Assembly (NCBI RefSeq): GCF_000026545.1
Contig: NC_011601.1
DNA length: 64,000 nt
DNA from: Escherichia coli O127:H6 str. E2348/69
GTDB lineage: Bacteria; Pseudomonadota; Gammaproteobacteria; Enterobacterales; Enterobacteriaceae
Strand: one strand, 5' to 3'
The first letter of the stretch is position 1; each line of letters begins with the position of its first letter. Positions 36,081-51,469 of this stretch are shown here, one piece after another. A program made the position numbers and the translations under genes. The notes beneath the pieces were generated by a model. That model did no database searches and had not been told where the DNA came from. It saw only the letters and a program-made list of their open reading frames with translations.

Positions 36081-36388
36081 AGATACCTCCTCGACGGCTG
36101 ACTTTATGTGCTCTCCTCTGTGATGATCTTCTGATTTAATTTTAATCAATGATAAAGAAGTTGATGGTGACCATTTCTGATGCAGTTGTTCAAAAAAACA
36201 CCATGATGAATTGTGATGAACTCCAAATCAGCGGTTTAGAGGTTATTTGCGAAAGGGGAGATTTATTTCGGCTCTGCCCTTGAGTTTAGCGGGGTATGTC
36301 AGTACTATAACGCGTCATTTTTCAGCCGACCTTTAACACGTTCCTTGCCTCCCCGGGATTCGGCTGACCCAGACAGGAGGCTGAATAA

Positions 36389-36802
<414 letters not shown>

Positions 36803-37384: not shown

Positions 37385-37846
<462 letters not shown>

Positions 37847-37867
37847 TTCGTTATTCAACGAGACGTA

Positions 37868-37900
37868 AAAACGCCGACCAGTGGTCGGCGTTTTGCTTTT
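37868..37900 (+). terminator. Intrinsic terminator of the rpsF-priB-rpsR-rplI operon
   Basis: CGCCGACCA-g-TGGTCGGCG perfect 9-bp stem followed by TTTTGCTTTT. Confidence 0.85.
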
Positions 37901-38206
37901 AAGTGATAAAAACCGCAGAAACAGACGTTCCCTCCATAAATCTCTTGTTATTCCTTTTATAAAAAGTTCGCAGTACCCATACCTGGCCCCCAGCCTCGCC
38001 GCTGGTAGTTCGTGTCATGTTTTTTACGCGTAAAACACGACAAAAGCATCAATACAGCGATCGTCTCCCTTGTATGATAATAAAAACAATATGTTATATA
38101 TGAATGTGCTGTTATTTTATTGTTTTTATATATAAAAGGATAAAATATCATCACTTTCGTAATCTTGAACGCTTTGCAGGTGCGTTCAATCCAATAAATG
38201 CTAATA

Positions 38207-38227
38207 TTATGGCTATCATAGCCATAA
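38207..38227. promoter_or_regulatory. Perfect 21-bp palindrome, candidate operator upstream of the HipB-like gene
   Basis: TTATGGCTAT-C-ATAGCCATAA (10-bp arms, 1-bp centre) 20 bp upstream of ORF start 38248; flanked by two ~24-bp near-identical direct repeats (38132-38155 and 38223-38246) containing TAAAAT. Confidence 0.5.
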
Positions 38228-38247
38228 AAAGATAAAATATTATCACT

Positions 38248-38727
38248 ATGGGTAAAAAAACAGCACCGTTACTCCCTTATACGAATCAGATGCTTAGTGA
38301 ATTTGGTGAGCGGCTGAAACTTGCTCGTTTACGACGCAGGCTTACCGCAAAGCAAGTTGCTGAACGTGCTGGGATGTCGCCAATAACATTGCGCTCTCTG
38401 GAGTCAGGAAGTGCAGGGGTCACGATAGGGGCATATTTGTCTGTGATGCAGGTTTTGGGCCTGGAAACGGATTTAAATAAGCTTGCAGCTGAAGACGACT
38501 TAGGGCGTCAGCTCCAGGATTCCCGTTTGATTAAAAAAAGAGGGCTTTCTCGTTCATCAGGTAAAAATGAAGAAGGTATTCAGACAGACCCTTTTCAAAC
38601 GAGGTATGAGAAAGAAGGTTTACTCACCACGGATTTAACAGCACTGGCAGAAGGCTCAACGCCATCTATTACAGGAGAAACATCAACCTCTCTTGCAGCA
38701 CTATTAAAACCGATAAAAAACCGTTAA
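38248..38727 (+). CDS. HipB-like Xre-family HTH protein with long low-complexity C-terminal extension (candidate antitoxin/regulator)
   Basis: 159-aa ORF; [44 protein letters not shown]; start uncertain (alternative ATG at 38290); immediately upstream of HipA-like ORFs. Confidence 0.7.
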
Positions 38728-38740
38728 AAGGAAATTAATT

Positions 38741-39001
38741 ATGGCATTAATCGGAGTGTATGCGGATTGGGAAGGCCTGGATGGTCCGGAGCGGATTGGT
38801 TATTTACACAGTCGCCGCACTCGGACGCGTGAGATATTTGAGTTTGAGTACGATAAAAAGGCGCTTGCAGATCCTTCACTTAATTTCATTCAGTTAGATC
38901 CTGAAATAATGTTGTATGAGGGAGCACAGTACCCAATTCCTCCAAAGGATAAATTTGGTGCATTTAGTGATTCCTGCCCGGATCGTTGGGGCGTATGCTA
39001 A
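38741..39001 (+). CDS. HipA N-terminal-subdomain-like ORF (HipS-like), or 5' part of a frameshifted hipA-family gene
   Basis: 86-aa ORF ending FSDSCPDRWGVC*; resembles HipA N-subdomain; overlaps the next ORF by 16 nt in another frame. Confidence 0.6.
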   Translation: MALIGVYADWEGLDGPERIGYLHSRRTRTREIFEFEYDKKALADPSLNFIQLDPEIMLYEGAQYPIPPKDKFGAFSDSCPDRWGVC

Positions 39002-40008
39002 TGAAGCGTCGTTTTGAGAGGGATATTCGAGACGGGTTATGTGATAAAGACTCCCACCTTTATGAGTCTGATTATCTACTAGGTGTTCATGATCTTTATC
39101 GGGTTGGGGCTCTTCGATACAAACGTGAAGACGCTGGAGAGTTTCTTGATAATCGCATTGATGTTGCAGCCCCACCATTTACCGAAATAGCGAGTCTGGA
39201 AAGGGCTAGCCGGGCAATTGAAGAAGATCCTGATAATAAAGAGCTAATGGGGCAAAAATGGTTAAGAATGCTAATCGCTCCGGGGGGATCATTAGGGGGG
39301 GCACGTCCGAAAGCCAGTGTTGTTGATGAAGCTGGGCATCTCTACATCGCTAAATTTCCCAGTGTAAAAGATGAGTATGATGTTGGTGGATGGGAAATGG
39401 TCGTTAATGCACTTGCTGTTGGCTGTGGACTGAATGTTGCACCTGCTCAGGCGCATAAATTTGCCAGCAATTACCATTGTTTTATGGTTCGTCGTTTTGA
39501 CCGCACTAATGCGGGAAGGCGTCTGCATTTTGCTTCGGCTATGACACTAACCAGGCATCAGGATGGTGAAGATGCCTCTACAGGTGTGAGTTATCTGGAA
39601 TTAGCAGATGTTCTTATCAGGCATGGCGCGCAGACTAATACTGATCTTAAGGAACTCTGGTCCAGGATTGTTTTTAATATTCTTGTTTCTAATACCGATG
39701 ACCATTTACGTAATCATGGATATATCTTGATACCGGGAAAAGGTTGGCGGCTTTCTGAGGCATATGATTTGAATCCTGTTGCCAGGTCTGACGGTCTAAA
39801 ACTCAATATTACAGAAAATGATAATGCACTTGATTTGGAATTAGCTCGAGAAGTTGCGGAGTATTTTCGACTTGGTTTGACAGAAGCAGATGACATTATT
39901 GCTAATTTTAGAGGGATTGTCAGTCAGTGGCGAATCATTGCCGAGCGTCTTCGATTACCTGGTCGTGAGCAAGAGTTAATGGCAGAGGCGTTCAGGGGGG
40001 CAATTTAG
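38986..40008 (+). CDS. HipA-family Ser/Thr protein kinase core (HipT-like toxin candidate)
   Basis: 340-aa ORF (TTG at 38986; in-frame ATGs at 38995, 39001); Gly-rich loop PGGSLGGARPK, catalytic-loop-like SNTDDHLRNHG, AYDLNP motif, corresponding to HipA SVAGAQEK / DGHAKN / YDIIS. Confidence 0.7.
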   Translation: MGRMLMKRRFERDIRDGLCDKDSHLYESDYLLGVHDLYRVGALRYKREDAGEFLDNRIDVAAPPFTEIASLERASRAIEEDPDNKELMGQKWLRMLIAPGGSLGGARPKASVVDEAGHLYIAKFPSVKDEYDVGGWEMVVNALAVGCGLNVAPAQAHKFASNYHCFMVRRFDRTNAGRRLHFASAMTLTRHQDGEDASTGVSYLELADVLIRHGAQTNTDLKELWSRIVFNILVSNTDDHLRNHGYILIPGKGWRLSEAYDLNPVARSDGLKLNITENDNALDLELAREVAEYFRLGLTEADDIIANFRGIVSQWRIIAERLRLPGREQELMAEAFRGAI

Positions 40009-40106
40009 AATAGTTATTTTGATATATTCGCTAAATCATAAATTTGCGAAGCAATGCCAGTAGATACTGAACGTTTTGGAAGAGACGTTTAATTTATGAG
40101 AAAAAT

Positions 40107-40139
40107 AGAAACGCTACAAAGCTAAATTATAGCGTTTCT
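40107..40139. terminator. Candidate bidirectional terminator between convergent HipT-like gene and MFS transporter gene
   Basis: 9-bp inverted repeat AGAAACGCT ... AGCGTTTCT with 15-nt loop, A/T-rich flanks. Confidence 0.45.
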
Positions 40140-40150
40140 ATGTAAAATAA

Positions 40151-41428
40151 TTAGCTTGTCGCTAACTGTACTTGTGGTTCTTCGTCTTTAACTTTGATAA
40201 GCATCCACAGCGCAATGGCGCCAATAATGTCAAAGAAAGCCAGGGCAATAAAGAACGGCGCGAAGCCAATAATGTGAACGAATGCCCCGATAAACAGGTT
40301 GAAAATCAACTGACCGCTCCATGCACAGGCTCCTGCCATACCCACAGCGGTAGCTACTTCGTCTTTTTTGAATAGGTCACCGCCCAGAGTTGCTGCAACA
40401 GTAGAAAGACATTGATGCGAGAATGCGCCAATGCTAATCAGTAATACGGCGATGTAGGGATTTTCGACAATACTCACCAGACCAATCGTCATCATAATGA
40501 CGGCTGCAATAGTGAAGGTAATTCTTCGTGAGTTAATTAAACTCACGCCGCGATCGTGGAAGAACTTCGCGACAAAACCACTGGCTAAACAGCCGAGATC
40601 GCCCAGCAGGAAAGGCAGCCAGACGAACATGGCAATTTCTTTCAGGCTAAAATGCAGCGTTTCGACGAAGAAAATCGGTACCCAGAAGTTAATGGTTCCC
40701 CATGCCGGGTCAGCGAGAAAACGCGCGATGCCAATCCCCCAGAAATTACGTTGGCTGAGGATATGCTTGATTGACGTTTTTTCTTTCTTATCTGTTTTAA
40801 GATGCTGTTCTTGCCCAGACTCAATATAGTGGCGCTCTTCATCAGAAAGGCGTTTAGCATCTTTTGGATCTTTATAACAAAAGAACCAAAATAAAGCCGC
40901 GAGTAAAGCAAGGCTACCTGAGACAATAAACGCAAATTGCCAGCTATGAAACATAATGCACCAGGCAATCAACGGTGGAGCAAGCATCGCGCCGAGTGAG
41001 GTGCCCATATTGAAAACACCTGTCGCCACGCCACGCTCTTTTGCCGGGAACCATGTTGATGCGGTTTTTACACCCGCAGGAATTGCCGATGCTTCGCTGA
41101 AACCCATCAGGGCGCGCATAAATGCCAGACCTGACCATGTTCCTGTCAAGGCATGCCCCATTGTCGCCAGGCCCCAGATTGCGGCACATATCGCAAAACT
41201 TAACTTCAGACCCACGGTATCAATAAAGAAGCCCATTATCGGTTGCCCCAATGTATAGGCCAACTGGAATGCACTGACAATCCATGAATATTGTTCTTTG
41301 GTTATTCCGGTTGTCTCCATAATCGTTGGAGCCGCAATACCTAACGCCGTTCTGTCCAGATAATTGATTACAGTGATAAAGCATACGAGGGCAATCATAT
41401 GCCATCGATAATTCTTTATTTTATTCAT
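40151..41428 (-). CDS. MFS transporter, anion:cation symporter (ACS) family (ExuT/GarP/DgoT-like organic-acid transporter)
   Basis: 425-aa ORF, ~12 TM segments, N-terminal YLDRTALGIAAP motif typical of ACS-family sugar-acid transporters. Confidence 0.8.
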   Translation of the reverse strand: MNKIKNYRWHMIALVCFITVINYLDRTALGIAAPTIMETTGITKEQYSWIVSAFQLAYTLGQPIMGFFIDTVGLKLSFAICAAIWGLATMGHALTGTWSGLAFMRALMGFSEASAIPAGVKTASTWFPAKERGVATGVFNMGTSLGAMLAPPLIAWCIMFHSWQFAFIVSGSLALLAALFWFFCYKDPKDAKRLSDEERHYIESGQEQHLKTDKKEKTSIKHILSQRNFWGIGIARFLADPAWGTINFWVPIFFVETLHFSLKEIAMFVWLPFLLGDLGCLASGFVAKFFHDRGVSLINSRRITFTIAAVIMMTIGLVSIVENPYIAVLLISIGAFSHQCLSTVAATLGGDLFKKDEVATAVGMAGACAWSGQLIFNLFIGAFVHIIGFAPFFIALAFFDIIGAIALWMLIKVKDEEPQVQLATS

Positions 41429-41520
41429 TTTTAAACCTTTTAATTATATTAATAAACCCTGGTTATTGGTATTTCCATGTAATAGGCAATAAAAATCAGG
41501 TACAGAGGAAATATTGAAAA

Positions 41521-43593
41521 TTATTGTGTGTAAATGTCTCCCTTTAAAAAGTCTGGCCAGTTTTTTTCAAAGTAAATACCGTTAATACACGGTTGAATAC
41601 GTAAAGACTTTACTTCGGTAATAAAAGAACCTTGCGAATATTGAATTGTTAATTTGTGATTTTTGTCTTCAGCGAGTTCAGAGCGAAAACGCCATTCTTC
41701 TTTTGCGCCGCGACGAGTTTGTGGTAGGCATTTGCCTTGTGGATCAATAACCATACGCGCCCCACGGCTACCACCACCAGCATCAATATAATGCGTTAAT
41801 TGTGTTAATACCGCGGCAGAAGTCAGCGCCATATGCCGCCACATAAACAGCTCGGCAACTTCACCCACATGTTTGATTGCCAATCCATGCCGTTGCACAA
41901 ATTCACTCAATAGCAGGGCATCACGAGTGGCGCGTCGGACTTTATCGGCATGGCAAATAAATCCCGCATGGTCAGACATTCGTGCCTGAATTTTTTCTCT
42001 CACAACCGACAACGGCATCCCGGTCCCGTTATCGTGCGCCTGAGTAATGATCTCTCTTATAGAAGCCAGTGCCGGAGCTGCCAGCTGTGCAATATCTCCA
42101 TCAATATTCCGCTTTTGCGTGCAACCAATAAAGCGCGCCAGACGAACAGCAAAAACCTGCCCGGCATTCAACGCCGCGCCGCCAGGTCGGGTGACGCCGT
42201 GTGTGCCAGCAACTTCCCCCACCGCAAAACAACCGGGCAGAGATGTTTGTCCCCAGATATCGACTTCAATGCCGCCATTCATGTGCTGATTATTCATGGC
42301 AAACTGCAATGGCTGCGTGATGAGATCGTAACCGTGCATCTTATACAGCGAGATAGACAGAGGATTCATTCGTTGCAGGCGTTCGATGGGCGATGGTGCC
42401 AGAGCGTCGTTATTTTCCAGATACGTGCGAACGTCGTCGTCCAGTCGATCTAATGAGAACGGCAGGTCACCCGGCACAGGTTCAGGATTGCGATTGAAAT
42501 CCATAAATACCTGACGCCCTGATTGCTGCTCTTGCGCCACCGCCATATCTAACAAGCTGGAGCCAAAATCCATTACCCGCGTGGCGTGGAATGGCCACTG
42601 ATAGCCTTTACGGAAGATGTTTGAAGCCAACTCCTGGGTGGTGCGATAGTAATCTGCGAGGAAGTTATACTCGTTGCCCCCAGCATCCACGGAATAGATA
42701 TATGGGATCACCTGTACATAGGTGCCGGACAAATTCCACGGAAACGTGCTGCGCGGTGTGCCGATACCAAACTGGCTTTCAGTCAGATTCGTTAACGTCA
42801 GACCTTCCTCCAGCGCCAGCCCCAGCGAGCCGAAACATTTGTGTGGATACACACTGTCGCGATAAAGCTCGCCAGGCCCGCCTGTTGCCAGTACCACATT
42901 GGGTGCAGTCACAATTGCCAGCCCCCATGGGTTATGGGCGCGATGACCGGTCGCGAGGATTGCCCCCGCCACACGGTCTTCACCGTTTTCGTCACGCTGA
43001 TGCAGCAGTTTAATCACTGTTGCACTGGTCAACATTGGGATAGCAAGACGCTGTACTTCTTCCAGCAGCACTTTCACCATTAACCTTGAGGTACGCGGCC
43101 CACACGAGGTTGCACGCCCGGCTTCGTCGTGGTCGGTTTGATAACGAAGAATCGCGCCATAGCGATCTTCCGGTAATTCCAGACCAAGATATTGCAACCC
43201 GCCAAGAGTGTGCAGAGAACCTACCGCTTCAACATAAGCGGTGTCGTGATCCATCGCCCCACCGCTCGCCAGTGCCTCTGCCAGTTTGGCGAAGTTGTCG
43301 CCGTTGCCCGCGGTAGCGGCGGTAAACAGTGTTTGTTTATCAGAGCCAGAACATGCCGACGTCCCCATATATAACCCGGCGGTGGCGATTAACACATTTT
43401 GCTGGCGGCGTTTAAGTTCCACAGCTGCACGCAGCCCGGCTGCACCACTGCCGACTACCAGGGCATCTGTTTTCCAGAGTGGGTAATCAACACCGTCTAC
43501 CGTGACAACCCATGCGGGGTCTGCCTGTGCAAAACCCTTTGGGAAAGTAACGTGCGTCAGCGCATCAAGGATGGTGTCATCAAGCTGACTCAT
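41521..43593 (-). CDS. FAD-binding oxidoreductase (fumarate reductase/succinate dehydrogenase flavoprotein-like superfamily)
   Basis: 690-aa ORF with Rossmann dinucleotide motif ALVVGSGAAGLRAAVEL near N-terminus; start codon overlaps upstream gene stop (ATGA). Confidence 0.7.
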   Translation of the reverse strand: MSQLDDTILDALTHVTFPKGFAQADPAWVVTVDGVDYPLWKTDALVVGSGAAGLRAAVELKRRQQNVLIATAGLYMGTSACSGSDKQTLFTAATAGNGDNFAKLAEALASGGAMDHDTAYVEAVGSLHTLGGLQYLGLELPEDRYGAILRYQTDHDEAGRATSCGPRTSRLMVKVLLEEVQRLAIPMLTSATVIKLLHQRDENGEDRVAGAILATGHRAHNPWGLAIVTAPNVVLATGGPGELYRDSVYPHKCFGSLGLALEEGLTLTNLTESQFGIGTPRSTFPWNLSGTYVQVIPYIYSVDAGGNEYNFLADYYRTTQELASNIFRKGYQWPFHATRVMDFGSSLLDMAVAQEQQSGRQVFMDFNRNPEPVPGDLPFSLDRLDDDVRTYLENNDALAPSPIERLQRMNPLSISLYKMHGYDLITQPLQFAMNNQHMNGGIEVDIWGQTSLPGCFAVGEVAGTHGVTRPGGAALNAGQVFAVRLARFIGCTQKRNIDGDIAQLAAPALASIREIITQAHDNGTGMPLSVVREKIQARMSDHAGFICHADKVRRATRDALLLSEFVQRHGLAIKHVGEVAELFMWRHMALTSAAVLTQLTHYIDAGGGSRGARMVIDPQGKCLPQTRRGAKEEWRFRSELAEDKNHKLTIQYSQGSFITEVKSLRIQPCINGIYFEKNWPDFLKGDIYTQ

Positions 43594-45131
43594 GCATCCT
43601 CCATCGGCGTAAACAGGCTGCTTTCCATCAGACGTGGGTGCCTGATAATCGGACGGAAGGCCATGAATGGCAGAATGTCGCGCTCAATCTCTACGCCAGG
43701 GGCGATCTCAATTAATTCAACGCCTTCTGCCGTTAACTGGAATACCGCACGTTCGGTGATATACAGCACTTCCTGACCGCTTTGCTGTGCGTAGGCGGCG
43801 CTAAAGGTGATTTTTTCCACCAGGGCAACCAATTTAGGGATTTGACCTGACTGGGCGATATGCAAGCCATCTGGCGTTACATCAATCTTGCTGCCTTTGG
43901 CGTCGAACGTACCGCAAAACACCACTTTACGGGCGTTTTGTGCAATTTCGAGAAATCCGCCGGGGCCAATGAGATTGCCATTAAGATGGGATACGTTGAC
44001 GTTACCGTACCGATCCATCTCTCCCATGCCGAGGAAGGTGATATCGATACCGCCGCCACTGTAGAATTCGAATTGATCGAGTGATGGAATAATGGCATCG
44101 GCGTTACGGGCGCAGCCGAACAGAGCATCATCCAGCATCATGCCGTTATGTACACCCTGTTCTACACTCAGCCACAAACTTTGATAAGGCACGCCTTCGC
44201 GCAGCGCAACCCCAGGAATACCGCCGGGAATACCAAAGCCAAAGTTGGTTGAAGCGCCTGCCACCAGTTCCCGCGCTGCCCGACGGGCAATCAGGCGACG
44301 CACCGGATGACTAACCAGTTCAATAGCGTCGTTAGAACTTAGACGGCGATGTTGACCGCTGATGGTCAGGTCGTAACCGCCAAGATAGGTTTGCGGTTGT
44401 TCGCGGTGCTCAACGATGCCATCGACCAGAATTCCTGGTAGCTTGACCCGACGTGGTTCAATGGTACCTGCTTCCAGCACATCGCGGACCTGTACGAACA
44501 CTTTGCCGCCGCTGTTGTGTGCTGCCAGCGCCATCGAATAGCTATCCATATAAATCGCTTCTTCTTCGAGGCTAACGTTGCCTCGTGGATCGGCATAAGT
44601 GCCACGCAAAATCGCGTAATCCACTTTGAAAGGGCGATAACGAAGTTTGGTCTCACCGTCGATTTCAATCAGTTCTACCAGGTCGTCGGTAGTGCATTCA
44701 TTCGACTTACCGCCGCCATTGCGTGGATCAACAAACGATCCCAGCCCAACGTGGGTAAAAAGCCCCGGACGTCCGGCACCGATCTCCCGCAGCAGTGCCT
44801 GAATTACGCCACCAGGGAAACAGTAGGCTTCAATAGCATTGCTTTTCACCAGTTCCTGCATCTTGGGCGACCAGGTAAAATGTCCGGCAATAATGCGTTT
44901 GAGCATTTCGGCGTGAGCAAAACGGTTAGTGCCTTTGCTGTCGCGATCGCCAATACCCAGCGAGTGGATTAATGTCAGATCGCGCGGGTGTCCGGTTTGC
45001 AGGAAACGCGCTTCAATGGCGGCCAGAATATGGTCAGCTTCCACCATACCGCCGCCGTTACCGCTAATGGCAATGGTTGCGCCGTCCTGAATTTGCGCCG
45101 CCAGTGTCTCGGCGGTTGATAACTTACGCAT
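43590..45131 (-). CDS. Family-I acyl-CoA:acetate/3-ketoacid CoA-transferase (fused alpha/beta, YdiF-like)
   Basis: 513-aa ORF; N-terminus MRKLSTAETLAAQIQDGATIAISGNGGG and overall layout resemble fused family-I CoA-transferases. Confidence 0.75.
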   Translation of the reverse strand: MRKLSTAETLAAQIQDGATIAISGNGGGMVEADHILAAIEARFLQTGHPRDLTLIHSLGIGDRDSKGTNRFAHAEMLKRIIAGHFTWSPKMQELVKSNAIEAYCFPGGVIQALLREIGAGRPGLFTHVGLGSFVDPRNGGGKSNECTTDDLVELIEIDGETKLRYRPFKVDYAILRGTYADPRGNVSLEEEAIYMDSYSMALAAHNSGGKVFVQVRDVLEAGTIEPRRVKLPGILVDGIVEHREQPQTYLGGYDLTISGQHRRLSSNDAIELVSHPVRRLIARRAARELVAGASTNFGFGIPGGIPGVALREGVPYQSLWLSVEQGVHNGMMLDDALFGCARNADAIIPSLDQFEFYSGGGIDITFLGMGEMDRYGNVNVSHLNGNLIGPGGFLEIAQNARKVVFCGTFDAKGSKIDVTPDGLHIAQSGQIPKLVALVEKITFSAAYAQQSGQEVLYITERAVFQLTAEGVELIEIAPGVEIERDILPFMAFRPIIRHPRLMESSLFTPMEDA

Positions 45132-45140
45132 ACAATTTCC

Positions 45141-45923
45141 TTATTGATTGTGGAAGCTCACGCCGGCTTTTTCGGCAAATGCGTGCGTCGCCTGTTGGCA
45201 ATCCTGAGTGGCGGACATTAATCCAGCCAGTAACTGGTGGGAGTAATCGGCGTGTTTATTTTCCAGCGCCAGAATCAGTTGCTTAATATGTGCCAGTGCC
45301 ACCGGACCACATTTTTCCAGCTGCGCTAACTGGTTCACCATCCAGCTTTCCACCTGTTCTTTTTCTACCACTTCATCAATTAAATTCGCTGTCTGAGCTT
45401 CCTGCGCCGTCAGGCGTTTACCCAGCATCAGCATCTGGCGACCGACCACCGGGCCAACCTGATTAAGCACGCGTTCAATGCCCATCCAGCCAGGCACCAT
45501 GCCGAGCATCACTTCCGGGTTAGAGAATTTCGCGCCGGGGCGAGCGATACGAATATCACAGCACAAGGCGAGTTCAATCCCACCGCCAATGGTATGACCG
45601 TTGAGATTTGCAACCGTTAATTGGGGTAAATTGCGCAGGCGATTAAAAACCTCGTTACCGCGTTTAATCCATTTTCTGCCCATATCTAATGGCGAATAGG
45701 CCGACCACGATTTAATATCGCCGCCCGCACAAAAGAATTTATCGCCGGTTGCCGTTAATTCGACTAATCGTAATGTGGTGTCGTTTTCAATTTCATTTAA
45801 ATAATGGTCGAGAGATTCGATCATTTCTTCATTAATAGCATGACATTTATCTTCACGGTTCAATGTCAGGCGGCAAGAAGCCGCCGCTCTGCTGAACAGA
45901 ACGGGTTGGTCATTCATGATCAT
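45141..45923 (-). CDS. Enoyl-CoA hydratase/isomerase (crotonase superfamily)
   Basis: 260-aa ORF with crotonase oxyanion-hole motifs FCAGGDIK and NGHTIGGG. Confidence 0.75.
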   Translation of the reverse strand: MIMNDQPVLFSRAAASCRLTLNREDKCHAINEEMIESLDHYLNEIENDTTLRLVELTATGDKFFCAGGDIKSWSAYSPLDMGRKWIKRGNEVFNRLRNLPQLTVANLNGHTIGGGIELALCCDIRIARPGAKFSNPEVMLGMVPGWMGIERVLNQVGPVVGRQMLMLGKRLTAQEAQTANLIDEVVEKEQVESWMVNQLAQLEKCGPVALAHIKQLILALENKHADYSHQLLAGLMSATQDCQQATHAFAEKAGVSFHNQ

Positions 45924-45926
45924 TCC

Positions 45927-46769
45927 TTAACAATAATGTGCGATGCGATCGACGCTAATATCCAGCGTGCTGTTAATATCTTTCTGCCACCAGTACGGTG
46001 AGAATATTTCCAGTTCAATAGCGCCATTAAATCCGGCGTTTTCAACCAGCCGACGAATTGACGGAATATTGATGACACCATCTCCCGGCATTCCACGGTC
46101 ATTGACCAGATCGGTGGTCGGCACTAACCAGTCGGAAACATGAAACGCGAGGATGCGTTTTCCGGCACGCAGGATCTGACTGGCGAGATCCGGGTCCCAC
46201 CAGACATGGTAGACATCTACCGCCACGCCGAGGCCAAATTCGCCATCGGGATCGAGTTCATCACACCAGTCCAGCGCCTGACGTAACGTGCACAGACAAG
46301 AACGATCGGCAGCAGTCATCGGGTGCAGTGGCTCCAGTGCAATTGGCACGCCGACCTCTTTCGAATGTGGCAGCAACTGGCGAATCCCTTGTTTCACCTG
46401 TTCCCGTGCTTCGTACAGATCTTTTGTTCCCATTGGCAGACCGCCAACCACCTGCATATAACAGGCGGCGTTCAGTACAGCGGCGTCGTCCAGCGCCCGG
46501 CGGTTATCGTCAATCGCCAGTTTGCGCTCCGCCAGCGTCGGTGCGGTGTAGTAGGTGCTACGGCACAAACCGGAAACGTTCATGTTACTGGCAGCAAGCT
46601 GGCGGGCGATTTGCTGGAGATCTTCACTCTGCAACTCCCTGCGCCAGGGGGCAATCGCGCCAATACCGCGTGCGGCGCAGGCATCAATAATGGCGGGTAG
46701 CGGCGTTTTATAGCCCAGTGTCGCGGTATTGATACTGAATAAATCCGGGCGTTGTAACAGATCTCTCAT
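45927..46769 (-). CDS. Sugar phosphate isomerase/epimerase-like TIM-barrel protein (xylose-isomerase-like fold)
   Basis: 280-aa ORF; pattern resembles AP-endonuclease-2 / xylose-isomerase-like TIM-barrel proteins (weak, by eye). Confidence 0.55.
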   Translation of the reverse strand: MRDLLQRPDLFSINTATLGYKTPLPAIIDACAARGIGAIAPWRRELQSEDLQQIARQLAASNMNVSGLCRSTYYTAPTLAERKLAIDDNRRALDDAAVLNAACYMQVVGGLPMGTKDLYEAREQVKQGIRQLLPHSKEVGVPIALEPLHPMTAADRSCLCTLRQALDWCDELDPDGEFGLGVAVDVYHVWWDPDLASQILRAGKRILAFHVSDWLVPTTDLVNDRGMPGDGVINIPSIRRLVENAGFNGAIELEIFSPYWWQKDINSTLDISVDRIAHYC

Positions 46770-46778
46770 GATTCAGCC

Positions 46779-47570
46779 TCAGAAGCGCGGCATACTTAAG
46801 CCGCCGTCGATGGCGACCGCCTGACCACAGGTGTAAATCAGTTTACCTTCCGCCATCGCGCGGACAGTGGAAGCAATATCAGCCGGATAACCCCAACGTC
46901 CCCACGGCACCAGACCTTTGGCAATCAGTTCGTCGTAATAGGCCGTTGCCGGAATAGTCATATCGGTTTTGATGAGACCAGGACGCACTTCATATACGCC
47001 AATTTGTTCATTACAAAGGCGAGCAGCAAACAGACGAGCAGCGGCAGAGACGGCAGTTTTGGCAATGGTATATTCGCCGCGATTCATCGCCAGCATGATG
47101 GCGTTGATGGAACTGACAAAAATAATCGAGCGGTGCGGCAGTTCTGCTTCCGGTTTCGGCTGTGCCAGTAAGCGCTTACTGAATGCCTGAGCAAGGAAGA
47201 ACGGTGCGCGGGTGTTAATGGCAATATTTTGGTCGAAGCTGTCTGGTTCGAGGTCGAGAAGGTCACCGCGTTTTTTCACTGAAATGCCTGCGTTGTTGAG
47301 CAGGCAGTCCAGACGTCCCCACTGGTTTTGCGCTGCGTCGAGCATCTCTTCATGCAGGGAGAGATCGCCCACATCAGCAGGGAAGCAAATCACTTCCACG
47401 CCTTCCGCCAGACATTCTTGTTGTGTGGCATGTAATTTTTCTACGCTATCGGCATCCGGACGATCATTAATCAGCAGATTAAATCCGCCACGCGCAAGCT
47501 CCAGCGCACAGCCTTTTCCAATACCACGTGCGGCTCCGGTAATCACGGCAACAGGACGAGTGGATTTCAT
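46779..47570 (-). CDS. Short-chain dehydrogenase/reductase (SDR)
   Basis: 263-aa ORF with TGAARGIG cofactor motif, NNAG, catalytic YxxxK (YTIAK). Confidence 0.85.
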   Translation of the reverse strand: MKSTRPVAVITGAARGIGKGCALELARGGFNLLINDRPDADSVEKLHATQQECLAEGVEVICFPADVGDLSLHEEMLDAAQNQWGRLDCLLNNAGISVKKRGDLLDLEPDSFDQNIAINTRAPFFLAQAFSKRLLAQPKPEAELPHRSIIFVSSINAIMLAMNRGEYTIAKTAVSAAARLFAARLCNEQIGVYEVRPGLIKTDMTIPATAYYDELIAKGLVPWGRWGYPADIASTVRAMAEGKLIYTCGQAVAIDGGLSMPRF

Positions 47571-47783
47571 ACAATAGCTCTCTTTTTTTTGAATTTTGTT
47601 TCCTTAGTGATGATTAGCTTGCGACTGGAGGGTAAAAAGATCAACCATCTAGTTGGTTGATATGCGATGGCGATCACAGGACATTTGATAACCTGATGAA
47701 AGTACAAGTTTTTGCCCTTTTTTCTGAAGCTGAAATCAAATCAGGTTATGATAGTCACCACGAAGAGGTCGTGGGGAAGCGTT

Positions 47784-48431
47784 ATGTATCTTGATACCAG
47801 CAACGTACAGAGCCTGAAAGAAAAGCTGCTGTTATGCGCGGTTAATGAATTTGCCGAATATGGTTACGAAGGGGCCAGAGTCGATAATATCGTCAAGGCC
47901 GCGGGGTGCAGTAAACAGACGGTTTATCACCACTTTGGTAATAAAGAAAATTTATTTATCGAAGTACTGGAATATACCTGGAACGATATTCGACAAAAAG
48001 AAAAGGCCCTTGATTTCTCAGATCTTCCGCCACAGAAAGCCATTGAGAAAATAATCGATTTTACATGGGATTATTATATTTCTAATCCCTGGTTTTTAAA
48101 AATTGTGCATAGTGAAAATCAAAGTAAGGGTGTGCATTATGCAAAATCACAGCGTCTTTTAGAAATTAACCATGCGCACTTGCAGTTAATGGAATCCTTA
48201 TTGGATGAAGGGAAGAAACAAAATATTTTTAAGCCAGATATCGACCCATTGCAGGTGAATATTAATATTGCTGCGCTTGGGGGATATTATTTGATCAACC
48301 AGCATACGCTTGGCCTGGTTTATCACATCAGTATGGTTTCACCGCAGGCACTGGAAGCCAGACGTAAGGTCATCAAAGAGACAATCCTTAGCTGGCTTTT
48401 GGTTGACCCTTCATCTACCGCGCGCGAATAA
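47784..48431 (+). CDS. TetR/AcrR-family transcriptional regulator, divergent from the catabolic operon
   Basis: ORF 47712..48431; likely start ATG 47784 (MYLDTSN) preceded by GGGGAAG; Tet[32 protein letters not shown]. Confidence 0.8.
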
Positions 48432-49053
48432 AACTGCCATCCGGCTGGCGGGTAAACAGGACCTGTTGATTATTCCCCGTATCAATGGTTAAGCCCGTCA
48501 CCACGCCGCTGGCGTTCTGGCGGATTTTCACCATCTGCCCGTTTTGCAAATTACTCAGTGGCTTATCCGCGCCTTCTACCTGCGCCATGGCATAGACATC
48601 GGTAGCGGGCAGTCCGTGGTCGCGGAACAGCTGCGCCATCGTTTTACCGGGTTCGACACGATAGGAGCGCCATTGATTATCAATTCCGCTATCTGGCTGG
48701 AATGGTTGCGTATGGGTGGTTTGCGGCTGCTCTTCTGGCTGGCCTTCCTGTATTGGTTCTGGAGCGACCGGAGCCACCTGATCAGGATCATTTTGTGGCG
48801 TGACTAATTGCGCCCGCAGCTGTTCTTCTGTCGGTGGTTGTGATTGCGACTGAATATCTAACTGCGCTTCACGCGTCACCACCGGCGCGTTGGGCGTATC
48901 ATCAGATGGAAGCAGAAATCCGACCACCAATACAATGGCGGCAATAATGATCCCCCGACGATGCATCGGCGGCAGCGGGTCCATGAAGCGAAAATTGTCC
49001 GGCGCGTGCCAGACTTTCTCCAGGGTTGGTTTTAGTTCAAAGCGCCCGGGCAT
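48415..49053 (-). CDS. ytfB: Cell-division/opacity-associated protein YtfB (OapA, LysM-like)
   Basis: ORF 48415..49089; start at [23 protein letters not shown]; TM segment and Pro/Gln-rich linker; 3' end overlaps TetR gene 3' end by 17 bp. Confidence 0.88.
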
Positions 49054-49919: not shown

Positions 49920-51469
49920 CTGTCTCTTATACACAAATCCCCACCCGGGGATTTGTGATGTCTGTCAGTCTGCTTTAGGGGGACTCTTTCCATCCGGTAG
50001 TTTCCTTCCTCCCCGGCAGCGATTTTTTGAACTTTTTCCTCACCTGTTGATCTTCTCTTATATTTCATTTTCTTCGGGTCTGTTATGGTACTTTCTGATT
50101 GTTATTCATGGGCTAACGAGCAGTTTGGACATGCCCGTCTCGGTGATCCGCGTCGTACACGACGCCTTGTGTCACTGGCCTCTTCTCTCGCTCAGCATGC
50201 AGGTCTTTCTATTGTGAAATCATCCCAGTCCACTGCTCAGGTTGAAGGTGCGTACCGCCTGATACGTAACCCGTCTGTGTCCCCGCAAGCCATTGCCGAA
50301 GCCGGATTTACCGCCACTGTAAGGGCATGTGAGGCTCATCCGCTGCTCCTCGCGCTGGAAGACACCACCACCATTAACTTCAGTCACAGTACGGCATCTG
50401 ATGACCTGGGGAATACCACCACTAACCCGAAGACGCGCGGGCTGCTGGCTCACTCTGTCCTGATGTACGCCCCCGACAGCGCCCTGCCAGTCGGTCTTAT
50501 CGAACAGCAGCGCTGGAGTCGTGCCACGGACACCTACGGTGTTAAGCACCAGCGAAAAGAACGTCCCTATGAAGAAAAAGAAAGTTACCGCTGGCAGCAG
50601 GCTTCGGAGCGCATGGCCGAACGGCTGGGGGAGATACAGAAACGGGTAATCACTGTCTGTGACCGGGAAGCGGATATCTGGCATTACCTGCATTATAAAG
50701 TCAGCCACGGGCAGCGCTTCGTGGTGCGTGCAGCACAGAATCGCCGGCTGGAAGAAGCACCCGGCAAGCTCTTCGAACTGCCGGAAGTCCTGGCAACCGC
50801 GGGAAGCCACACGCTGAATGTGATGCAAAAAGGCGGGCGGGCAGCCCGCCAGGCCCGGATGTTCATCAGTTACAGCGAAGTCAGCATAAAAAATCCCGAC
50901 AACAGCGGCCAGGCGCTCCCGCTCACGTATGTCTGTTGCCGGGAGCAGGCAGAGGACGGCGCCTGCTGGCATCTGCTGACGTCAGAAAAAGTGGCGAGTG
51001 CCGCCGATGCGCGACGTATCGTCAGCCATTACGAGCGACGCTGGCTGATAGAGGAATACCACAAGGCGTGGAAAAGTGGTGGTACATGTGTGGAATCGCT
51101 GTGAATGCAGACCCGGGATAACCTCGAGCGCATGGTGGTTATCAAGGCGTTTATCGCGGTGCGGGTGCTGGGCCTGCGGCAGGGCGGTATCAGTGAAGAA
51201 ACACAAAATGACAGCTGTGAGAAAATACTGACGCCGACAGAGTGGAAACTGCTGTGGGTTAAGCTGGAAGGAAAACCGCTTCCGTCACAGATGCCGACAC
51301 TGAAATGGGCCTGTCTGAAACTGGCGAAACTGGGGCGATGGCATGACAGCAAACGCACCGGTCGCCCCGGTTGGGTAGTCATGTGGGATGGCTGGTTCAG
51401 ACTTCAGGATATGGTTGAGGGTTACCTGGTGATGAAGTCTCTTGATCAGGAGATCTGATCAAGAGACAG
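49920..51469 (+). mobile_element. IS50-like insertion sequence (IS4 family), ~1.55 kb, with terminal inverted repeats and ~9-bp flanking direct repeats
   Basis: Left end CTGTCTCTTATACACAAAT (49920-) and right end AGATCTGATCAAGAGACAG (-51469) match IS50 OE/IE-type ends; flanks CGAACCAG at 49912-49919 and 51470-51477; internal transposase homologous to Tn5 Tnp. Confidence 0.85.
50085..51458 (+). pseudogene. IS50-like DDE transposase interrupted by in-frame TGA (339-aa + 117-aa fragments)
   Basis: ORFs 50085..51104 and 51105..51458 share one frame, separated by TGA at 51102-51104; Tn5-Tnp-like motifs GDPRRT, ALEDTT, CDREADI, RWLIEEYHKAWK in the first part and DNLERMV / DSKRTG in the second. Confidence 0.8.

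Follow-up and report, generated by a model that had tools for sequence, protein, structure and literature searches.

In Escherichia coli K-12, the chromosomal slot between rplI and ytfB holds two genes, yjfZ and ytfA. The former has been put forward as a conserved marker for quantitative PCR (qPCR) that is specific to E. coli/Shigella (PMC11057252), and Colclough et al. treat the latter as a TetR-family gene that only some E. coli possess, whereas every E. albertii and E. fergusonii strain in their study has it (PMC6790063). E. coli BL21 carries a coenzyme A (CoA)-transferase gene, ECD_04073, that is absent from K-12, was silent in five tested conditions, and encodes a protein 46% identical to M. 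elsdenii Pct (PMC6150544). A further system to be considered comes from the enteropathogenic E. coli O127:H6 str. E2348/69, where the toxin-antitoxin genes hipBST (NC_011601 3,948,403-3,950,320) encode HipB of 107 amino acids (aa), HipS of 103 aa, and HipT of 335 aa (CAS11333) (PMC6581861, PMC8262856). Here, we analyze the rplI-ytfB interval of E2348/69, within a stretch of 64,000 nucleotides (nt) of its chromosome (contig NC_011601.1) that we call the window and from whose first letter all window coordinates are counted. The interval encompasses a helix-turn-helix (HTH)/HipA-like module, a major facilitator superfamily (MFS) transporter, five catabolic genes, and a TetR regulator, and was taken, in an earlier sequence-only reading, for a strain-specific island occupying the position of yjfZ and ytfA. 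Comparison with other genomes makes it highly probable, instead, that this interval is an old polymorphic chromosomal locus and that the K-12 arrangement arose from it by deletion.

The K-12 arrangement as a product of deletion

The gene content and order of the interval are those given by the sequence-only reading, with which both the open reading frame (ORF) listing and the RefSeq annotation agree; the whole interval is 100% identical to the E2348/69 chromosome NZ_CP059840.2. Immediately downstream of the intrinsic terminator of rplI (37868..37899, plus strand, with a hairpin at 37868-37894 and a T-run ending at 37899) lies a hipBA-like cassette (37900..40104, plus strand). It is followed, on the minus strand, by the genes for the MFS transporter (40151..41428), a 690-aa FAD_binding_2 flavoprotein (41521..43593), a family I CoA transferase (43590..45131), a crotonase-family enoyl-CoA hydratase/isomerase (45141..45917), a xylose-isomerase-like TIM-barrel protein (45927..46769), and a short-chain dehydrogenase/reductase (SDR; 46779..47570). 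A control region (47571..47783) separates the SDR gene from the divergently transcribed gene of a TetR/AcrR regulator of 215 aa (47784..48431, plus strand; hereafter tetR), the 3' end of which shares 17 bp with the 3' end of ytfB (48415..49053, minus strand), the conserved right flank.

As the sequence-only reading had stated, K-12 lacks these genes and has yjfZ and ytfA at the same position. The more speculative suggestion made there, that ytfA might be a remnant of the TetR gene, turned out to be correct. Of tetR, K-12 ytfA preserves the final ~400 nt (positions 48031-48431), and the K-12 sequence aligns to window 48031-48593, a segment of 563 bp that runs into ytfB, with 97% identity and the same ytfB overlap. 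The two loci share the slot between rplI and ytfB as well as homology from 48031 onward, but none of the enzyme and transporter genes is present in K-12, and neither is the control region or the HTH domain of TetR. The relation between ytfA and TetR is already reflected in the RefSeq annotation, where PGAP labels K-12 ytfA 'TetR/AcrR family, missing N-terminus'. The gene is best regarded as what is left of a TetR regulator that has lost its operon and, with respect to this locus, K-12 as the mutant. In contrast, the other K-12 gene, yjfZ (DUF2686; locus L002, 3071-3865), which the sequence-only reading had proposed to compare with the interval proteins, has no counterpart in the window and is unrelated to anything in the interval.

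The tetR remnant is not the only trace of the operon in K-12. In K-12 and O157, a colinear segment of 102 bp has been retained between the region upstream of yjfZ and the tetR remnant; it corresponds to window 47380-47481, within the 5' part of the SDR gene. In K-12, this segment shows 20 differences in 102 positions, spread 8/5/7 over the codon positions, and two in-frame stops. The possibility that it is an imported functional SDR allele was considered and rejected, given that differences distributed evenly over the codon positions, together with two stops, mark a decayed relic. The junctions on either side of the relic are those of deletions. A 549-bp segment, window 47482-48030, is missing between the relic and the tetR remnant, taking with it the whole control region, and the microhomology TCCGCCAC is found at its SDR-5' and tetR-5' ends. 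A second deletion, of 7.3 kb, extends from just 5' of yjfZ into the SDR gene, with the microhomology CAGGGA[A/G]G at its ends. An allele that combines yjfZ with the complete operon exists, in strain AF57, and is a plausible precursor of the K-12-type deletion allele.

Distribution and ancestry of the locus

The interval, and then sub-queries derived from it, were compared by megablast with 5426 complete E. coli genomes. The five enzyme genes, at a coverage of at least 80%, are present in 3114 of these (57%), including E. coli B (REL606, BL21) and E. coli C, and are syntenic in other species, which is incompatible with a strain-specific island. What varies is the context. The combination of the hipBA-like cassette with the MFS gene, as in E2348/69 and also in Nissle 1917, is present in 1040 genomes (19%), and the exact full E2348/69 configuration is limited to 1042. 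In another 360 genomes, among them REL606, BL21(DE3), and E. coli C, the MFS gene follows directly 3' of the rplI terminator, with no cassette in between, and yjfZ, MFS, and operon occur together in about 300 (by subtraction; AF57 is an example). The MFS gene is replaced by a three-gene tripartite ATP-independent periplasmic (TRAP) transporter in 1446 genomes. The K-12-type junction, consisting of yjfZ, the truncated TetR gene, and ytfB, accounts for 2227 of the 5426 (41%). The E. coli B locus (REL606 ECB_RS21670-21700; the ECD_04073 region of BL21(DE3)) shares with the window the MFS gene, the five enzyme genes, and the TetR gene between rplI and ytfB, and differs from it by the lack of the hipBA-like cassette.

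One practical consequence concerns yjfZ, which is present in 2524 of the complete genomes and missing at this locus from E2348/69, Nissle 1917, E. coli B, and the TRAP-type strains; the proposed qPCR marker is therefore absent from about half of the complete genomes, this pathogen, at this locus, included. In O157:H7 and some other genomes with the K-12-type junction, IS609 (tnpA and tnpB/insQ; loci L007, 2988-4635, and L092, 2336-3843) is inserted inside the tetR remnant, which is, as a result, annotated as two fragments. Strain RM10740 has a strongly diverged tetR-ytfB allele (locus L006, 10745-12013), with 85% aa identity in TetR and 82% in YtfB and with 75-81% nucleotide identity in 500-bp bins, in otherwise ordinary flanks, which suggests an imported recombination tract.

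Beyond E. coli, we scanned one genome per bacterial species with the flavoprotein as the query and inspected the 80 best loci of FAD homologues. The complete block fklB-ytfB-tetR-SDR-TIM-ECH-CoAT-FAD-MFS-rplI (that is, the genes in the order given above, from the right flank to the left) was identified in E. whittamii and Entomohabitans teleogrylli. In two further cases, the contig ends inside the locus: that of E. albertii covers the ytfB/fklB side, and that of Escherichia sp. MOD1-EC7003, a member of a cryptic Escherichia clade, covers the rplI side. Across species, the identities of the operon proteins are 77-97% and track those of the flanking core genes. In Escherichia sp. MOD1-EC7003 (locus L012, 5373-5852) and in Entomohabitans teleogrylli (locus L014, 13657-14136), the MFS gene is followed by an additional gene encoding a 159-aa MaoC-like (R)-hydratase; E. 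coli has no such gene at the operon, and the hydratase may be a further operon member that was lost.

The tetR remnant, the SDR relic, the microhomology at the junctions, and the synteny in other species jointly identify K-12 as the derived state. The change was a deletion in the K-12 lineage rather than an insertion in E2348/69, so that the sequence-only reading, which was right about the K-12 content and about ytfA, had the direction of change reversed and the strain specificity wrong. The history of the locus most probably ran as follows. A core consisting of TetR divergent from the SDR, TIM-barrel, hydratase, CoA transferase, flavoprotein, and transporter genes was already in place in the ancestor shared by all Escherichia. 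Between the convergent terminators, lineages came to differ in the small cassettes of low GC content that they carry, yjfZ in some and the hipBA-like pair in others, with nothing in E. coli B, E. coli C, and E. whittamii. At the transporter end, the MFS gene was exchanged for the three TRAP genes, with a breakpoint that falls within the 3' part of the FAD gene. In an allele with yjfZ, two deletions associated with microhomology, one of 7.3 kb and one of 549 bp, took away the transporter together with four of the enzyme genes, the greater part of the SDR gene, the whole control region, and 247 nt at the 5' end of tetR; the product is the K-12 arrangement of yjfZ, the 102-bp SDR relic, and ytfA. 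In E2348/69, the operon has stayed intact, and the hipA-like toxin has been lost to a homopolymer frameshift.

To some extent, this is familiar ground: that the locus is an ordinary presence/absence polymorphism is already implied by the RefSeq annotation and by comparisons of E. coli B with K-12. The gain from the present analysis is modest and consists of a clean deletion history and of the recognition of a widely carried, unstudied operon.

A slot for small cassettes downstream of rplI

All configurations examined share their sequence through the final T of the rplI terminator and differ from the following base onward. The left breakpoint thus lies exactly at window 37899, and the left coordinate of 37901 that had been read from the sequence alone is correct to one base. 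In the cassette-free alleles (E. coli B, locus L004, and E. whittamii), the MFS terminator comes ~48 bp after the rplI terminator. In the window, the terminator-like hairpin 3' of the MFS gene (40105..40141, minus strand; an inverted repeat with 15-nt arms that are 93% complementary) is the right edge of the slot, and a diverged version of this hairpin was found in loci L003, L004, and L010. The hipBA-like and yjfZ cassettes fill the same gap between the convergent terminators of rplI and the transporter, the content of which varies among yjfZ, the hipBA-like pair, and nothing; neither cassette is flanked by a target duplication.

Both cassettes have a low GC content, 0.42 for the hipBA-like one and 0.40 for yjfZ, compared with 0.51 for the window. 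The hipBA-like cassette always occurs at this site and together with the MFS-type operon (all 1040 genomes that have it among the 5426), and is absent from L004, REL606, and E. whittamii. Homologues of its HipA with 72-76% aa identity, accompanied by adjacent HTH genes, are encoded on Azotobacter plasmids and Pantoea megaplasmids. Low GC content and plasmid-borne relatives make this cassette the sole part of the interval that fits horizontal acquisition: only these 2.2 kb behave as a lineage-restricted insertion and look imported. The slot at the rplI terminator is a place where small cassettes, such as a toxin-antitoxin pair or an orphan gene, turn over between convergent terminators without mobility machinery.

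Alternative histories

If the K-12-like yjfZ/ytfA locus were ancestral, the 10.5 kb would have been inserted as an island in strains like E2348/69. The lack of these genes in K-12, the low GC content at both ends of the interval (0.39 in the A/T-rich tract 3' of the rplI terminator, at 37750-38249; 0.424 in the hipBA-like cassette; 0.404 in tetR), and the limited spread of the exact full configuration would all be in line with such an event. However, the operon is found in more than half of the genomes and at the same site in other Escherichia species and in Entomohabitans, and K-12 has the truncated tetR and SDR relics with deletion-type junctions. The interval also lacks several usual attributes of an island, as the sequence-only reading had itself observed and as the searches bear out: Pfam and NCBIfam detect no integrase or transposase domain in any interval protein, no tRNA gene lies within window 30000-56000, and the repeat search found no direct or inverted repeats flanking the interval. 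No genuine plasmid or phage carries it. There are no phage matches at all, and the 'plasmid' matches were discarded as mislabelled pieces of chromosome, 0.37-4.9 Mb in size and with ytfB. Sporadic distribution combined with absence from sister species, likewise, characterizes the 2.2-kb hipBA-like cassette alone (19% of genomes) and not the operon. Such an insertion of the interval as a whole is, in our judgment, hardly credible.

Several points nevertheless weigh against the deletion history as we present it. The counts derive from a biased set of complete RefSeq genomes. Within E. coli, operon alleles differ by 3-12% per 500-bp bin, above the flanks, so that recombination has made the history harder to read. 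Between the K-12 SDR relic and every functional allele, the divergence is 15-20%, compared with 1-3% for the adjacent tetR remnant, and the deletion alleles differ among themselves by up to 8-10% around the relic and the yjfZ-upstream region. The difference between relic and remnant is not explained by a single simple deletion history; it requires that the tetR/ytfB side underwent gene conversion later on or that the deletion allele is very old or introgressed. Gene conversion that spread from intact alleles via ytfB would renew the tetR side and leave untouched a 102-bp segment enclosed by deletion junctions. Under the second option, the K-12-type allele came from outside E. coli, having undergone long decay in a diverged Escherichia lineage before it entered by homologous recombination via the rplI and ytfB flanks, or else it represents a very old presence/absence polymorphism. 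Both the neutral pattern of the relic in such little-diverged flanks and the differences among the deletion alleles speak for an origin of this kind, as does the presence of both allele classes within phylogroup A, to which K-12 and E. coli B are both assigned. Still, yjfZ is reported to be restricted to E. coli/Shigella (PMC11057252), its coding region is 97-99% identical among alleles, and the 102 bp are a small sample from a part of the SDR gene that is variable among functional alleles too (88-91%), and we regard an introgressed or very old deletion allele as unlikely.

The last point against our reading is the lack of any Salmonella, Citrobacter, or Klebsiella operon among the 80 best FAD-homologue loci, which leaves room for acquisition before the radiation of Escherichia. 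The operon would then be a more ancient island, gained once, between rplI and ytfB, by the ancestor of Escherichia and Entomohabitans. The scatter of its next relatives (55-70% aa identity), which come from Raoultella, Pantoea, Yersinia, Rhizobiales, Rhodobacterales, Planctomycetota, and Lentisphaerota and have other gene partners, points in the same direction. Conversely, the GC content of the enzyme genes (0.525) equals the local value (0.514 for the window; the MFS gene is lower, at 0.466), the Entomohabitans identities parallel those of the flanking core genes, and loss in the other genera is equally possible. An ancient gain seems to us somewhat doubtful, though worth keeping in mind, and does not conflict with the conclusion that, within E. 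coli, the locus is old and K-12 lost most of it by deletion.

A putative catabolic operon and its control

The operon that K-12 lost appears to be regulated by the divergently encoded TetR protein, which has both domains of a full-length regulator, TetR_N (PF00440, E 2e-14; the N-terminal HTH) and TetR_C_29 (PF17938, E 2e-30; C-terminal). The control region contains a perfect 8+6+8 palindrome, ATCAACCAtctagtTGGTTGAT, of the form ATCAACCA-N6-TGGTTGAT, at 47640-47661, inside the segment deleted in K-12, and this palindrome is a candidate TetR operator. The BL21 gene ECD_04073 is most likely the CoA-transferase gene of this operon, and its silence, taken together with the palindrome, is consistent with repression until an inducer is present. 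We therefore envisage a regulator that would bind the palindrome and release it upon binding of a ligand, whereupon the derepressed operon would import and degrade a carboxylated compound resembling a sugar acid. Degradation might proceed through oxidation of a ring or hydroxyl group by the SDR, isomerisation or elimination by the TIM-barrel protein, C=C redox chemistry by the flavoprotein, and CoA-thioester steps by the CoA transferase and the hydratase.

The individual proteins were assigned as follows. The SDR (adh_short domains) matches NCBIfam PRK12745 with 421 bits. The TIM-barrel protein, of the sugar phosphate isomerase/epimerase family (PF01261, E 1e-37), has as its closest PDB entries the uncharacterised structures 3QC0 and 3JU2 (SMc04130), with E 1e-85. 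The enoyl-CoA hydratase (ECH_1, E 5e-46) is best matched in PDB by 3-hydroxypropionyl-CoA dehydratase 5ZAI (E 3e-40), and the flavoprotein falls into the fumarate reductase/L-aspartate oxidase/KstD superfamily. The CoA transferase (PF01144) matches YdiF (PDB 2AHU, E 9e-116) and shares with YdiF and propionate CoA-transferase the fused alpha/beta architecture; the operon context, with an SDR, a TIM barrel, a fumarate-reductase-like flavoprotein, and a sugar-acid-type transporter, differs, however, from that of YdiF and the acrylate-pathway clusters. No pathway-level equivalog covers the operon among the curated models of NCBIfam and Pfam, the names of identical or near-identical proteins are generic only, and a literature search by protein accessions, the closest TIM-barrel PDB codes, and old locus tags returned only the remark on ECD_04073 in the BL21 model paper.

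Hints at the substrate come mainly from the transporters. The MFS protein (MFS_1) has its best NCBIfam match in the D-galactonate transporter subfamily, with 314 bits, below the cut-off of 395 bits. The breakpoint of the MFS/TRAP swap lies inside the last ~230 nt of the FAD gene: matches to TRAP-type genomes begin at query position 233 (window 41753), and in the bin 41401-41900 the identity between the window and TRAP-type loci is 76-77%. The binding protein of the TRAP system that replaces MFS in 1446 genomes is closest to solved solute-binding proteins (SBPs) that include glucuronate and galacturonate binders (E 1e-58 to 1e-72), the ligands of which are D-glucuronate and D-galacturonate (PMC7660916, PMC11668362). 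Its nearest group is that of the hexuronate TRAP systems (for example, S. Typhimurium STM3169-71; SBPs 4X8R, 4N8Y, 4N15, 4N91, and 4MHF), and a uronate-like ligand is thus predicted for the E. coli SBP; the window itself contains no TRAP genes. Since glucuronate and galacturonate are already served in E. coli by the ExuT/Uxa/Uxu route, the true substrate may be a related acid. Nor does the interval qualify as a hexuronate operon of a described type, given that no UxaC/UxuAB/UxaAB or Udh/Gli/KdgD-type enzymes were matched in it by Pfam or NCBIfam.

A second line of evidence is the neighborhood of distant FAD homologues in other phyla, which includes LacI regulators, levoglucosan-dehydrogenase-like Gfo/Idh/MocA proteins, GMC oxidoreductases, aldehyde dehydrogenase, and a GH88 gene and is indicative of carbohydrate-type chemistry. 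This brings to mind the 3-keto-sugar pathways, such as that for levoglucosan, which employ a Gfo/Idh/MocA dehydrogenase together with a xylose-isomerase-like TIM-barrel enzyme; distant homologues of the flavoprotein stand beside levoglucosan-dehydrogenase-like, TIM-barrel, and SDR genes and LacI regulators. The E. coli operon differs from these in having an SDR in place of Gfo/Idh/MocA and in adding the CoA-thioester enzymes, and no family cut-off is reached. Our best guess, made with low confidence, is that the substrate may be a hexuronate-like or other ring-shaped carboxylic acid, a fragment of which would be processed as a CoA thioester; a CoA transferase and a hydratase are unusual in a sugar-acid context, and this tells against the guess, which is a weak one.

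Putting these strands together, we tentatively propose, with somewhat less than even confidence, that most E. coli, including BL21 and REL606, possess an undescribed, partly CoA-dependent route for a hexuronate-like or ring-shaped acid that has been overlooked through the deletion in K-12, and that niche-dependent selection may lie behind its long persistence alongside a decayed deletion allele. Be that as it may, BL21 and REL606 offer experimental access to an uncharacterised catabolic operon that more than half of the sequenced E. coli carry.

The HipBA-like module and its decay

The cassette next to rplI has the arrangement of HipBA-type toxin-antitoxin modules, with an HTH antitoxin gene (38248-38727/38738, plus strand; HipB-like, Pfam HTH_31/HTH_3) directly 5' of the gene for a HipA-family kinase with a HipA_C domain (38741..40008, plus strand). 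The pair is intact in strain MS 57-2, where the HTH protein has 163 aa, the HipA-family protein 422 aa (HipA_C, E 9e-47), and the spacing is 2 nt. In E2348/69, both genes are marked 'frameshifted' by PGAP, and we mapped the indels against the MS 57-2 allele. In the HTH gene, an A7-to-A6 deletion (~38715) changes the last few residues only, giving 159 aa instead of 163 aa. In the hipA-like gene, a G5-to-G4 deletion (~38988) splits the reading frame into an N-terminal ORF of 86 aa (38741-39001) and an ORF of 335-340 aa for the kinase core (38986-40008), which overlap by 16 nt. On the evidence of the reading frame, the hipA-like toxin gene of E2348/69 is a pseudogene, inactivated by a homopolymer frameshift, although assembly errors might, in principle, also account for such frameshifts. 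An independent G7-to-G8 frameshift is present in Nissle 1917 and affects the Gly-rich loop of the hipA-like gene.

The frameshift falls near the point that separates hipS from hipT and, superficially, mimics the organization of hipBST, known from the same strain. The split genes are, however, not the published HipBST, from which they differ in coordinates, sizes, overlaps, and accession. Whereas hipS and hipT are separate genes, MS 57-2 has a single 422-aa gene, and the split in E2348/69 is made by a strain-level 1-bp homopolymer deletion that is absent from MS 57-2. With the K-12 hipBA and the E2348/69 hipBST, the module shares the order of an HTH gene followed by a HipA_C kinase gene; in sequence, the similarity is distant (PDB HipT 7AB3-5, E 2e-8). 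Just 5' of the HTH gene, two 24-nt direct repeats (38132-38155 and 38224-38247, plus strand; ATAAAAGGATAAAATATCATCACT-like), 92% identical and spaced by 92 nt, are possible operator sites for the antitoxin. The PADLOC scan for defence systems returned nothing for HipA or YjfZ.

Features of the flanks

On the left, the interval is bordered by rplI (37397-37846). The only match in the Rfam scan, the RpsF leader (RF02893, 110 bits; 36325-36409), lies outside the interval, upstream of rpsF, in the position to be expected in a ribosomal operon of this kind. The nearest insertion sequence is also outside the interval, beyond fklB on the right: E2348/69 has the IS4-like ISEc13 (transposase ORF 50085-51458) between fklB and cycA, and in K-12 cycA directly follows fklB.

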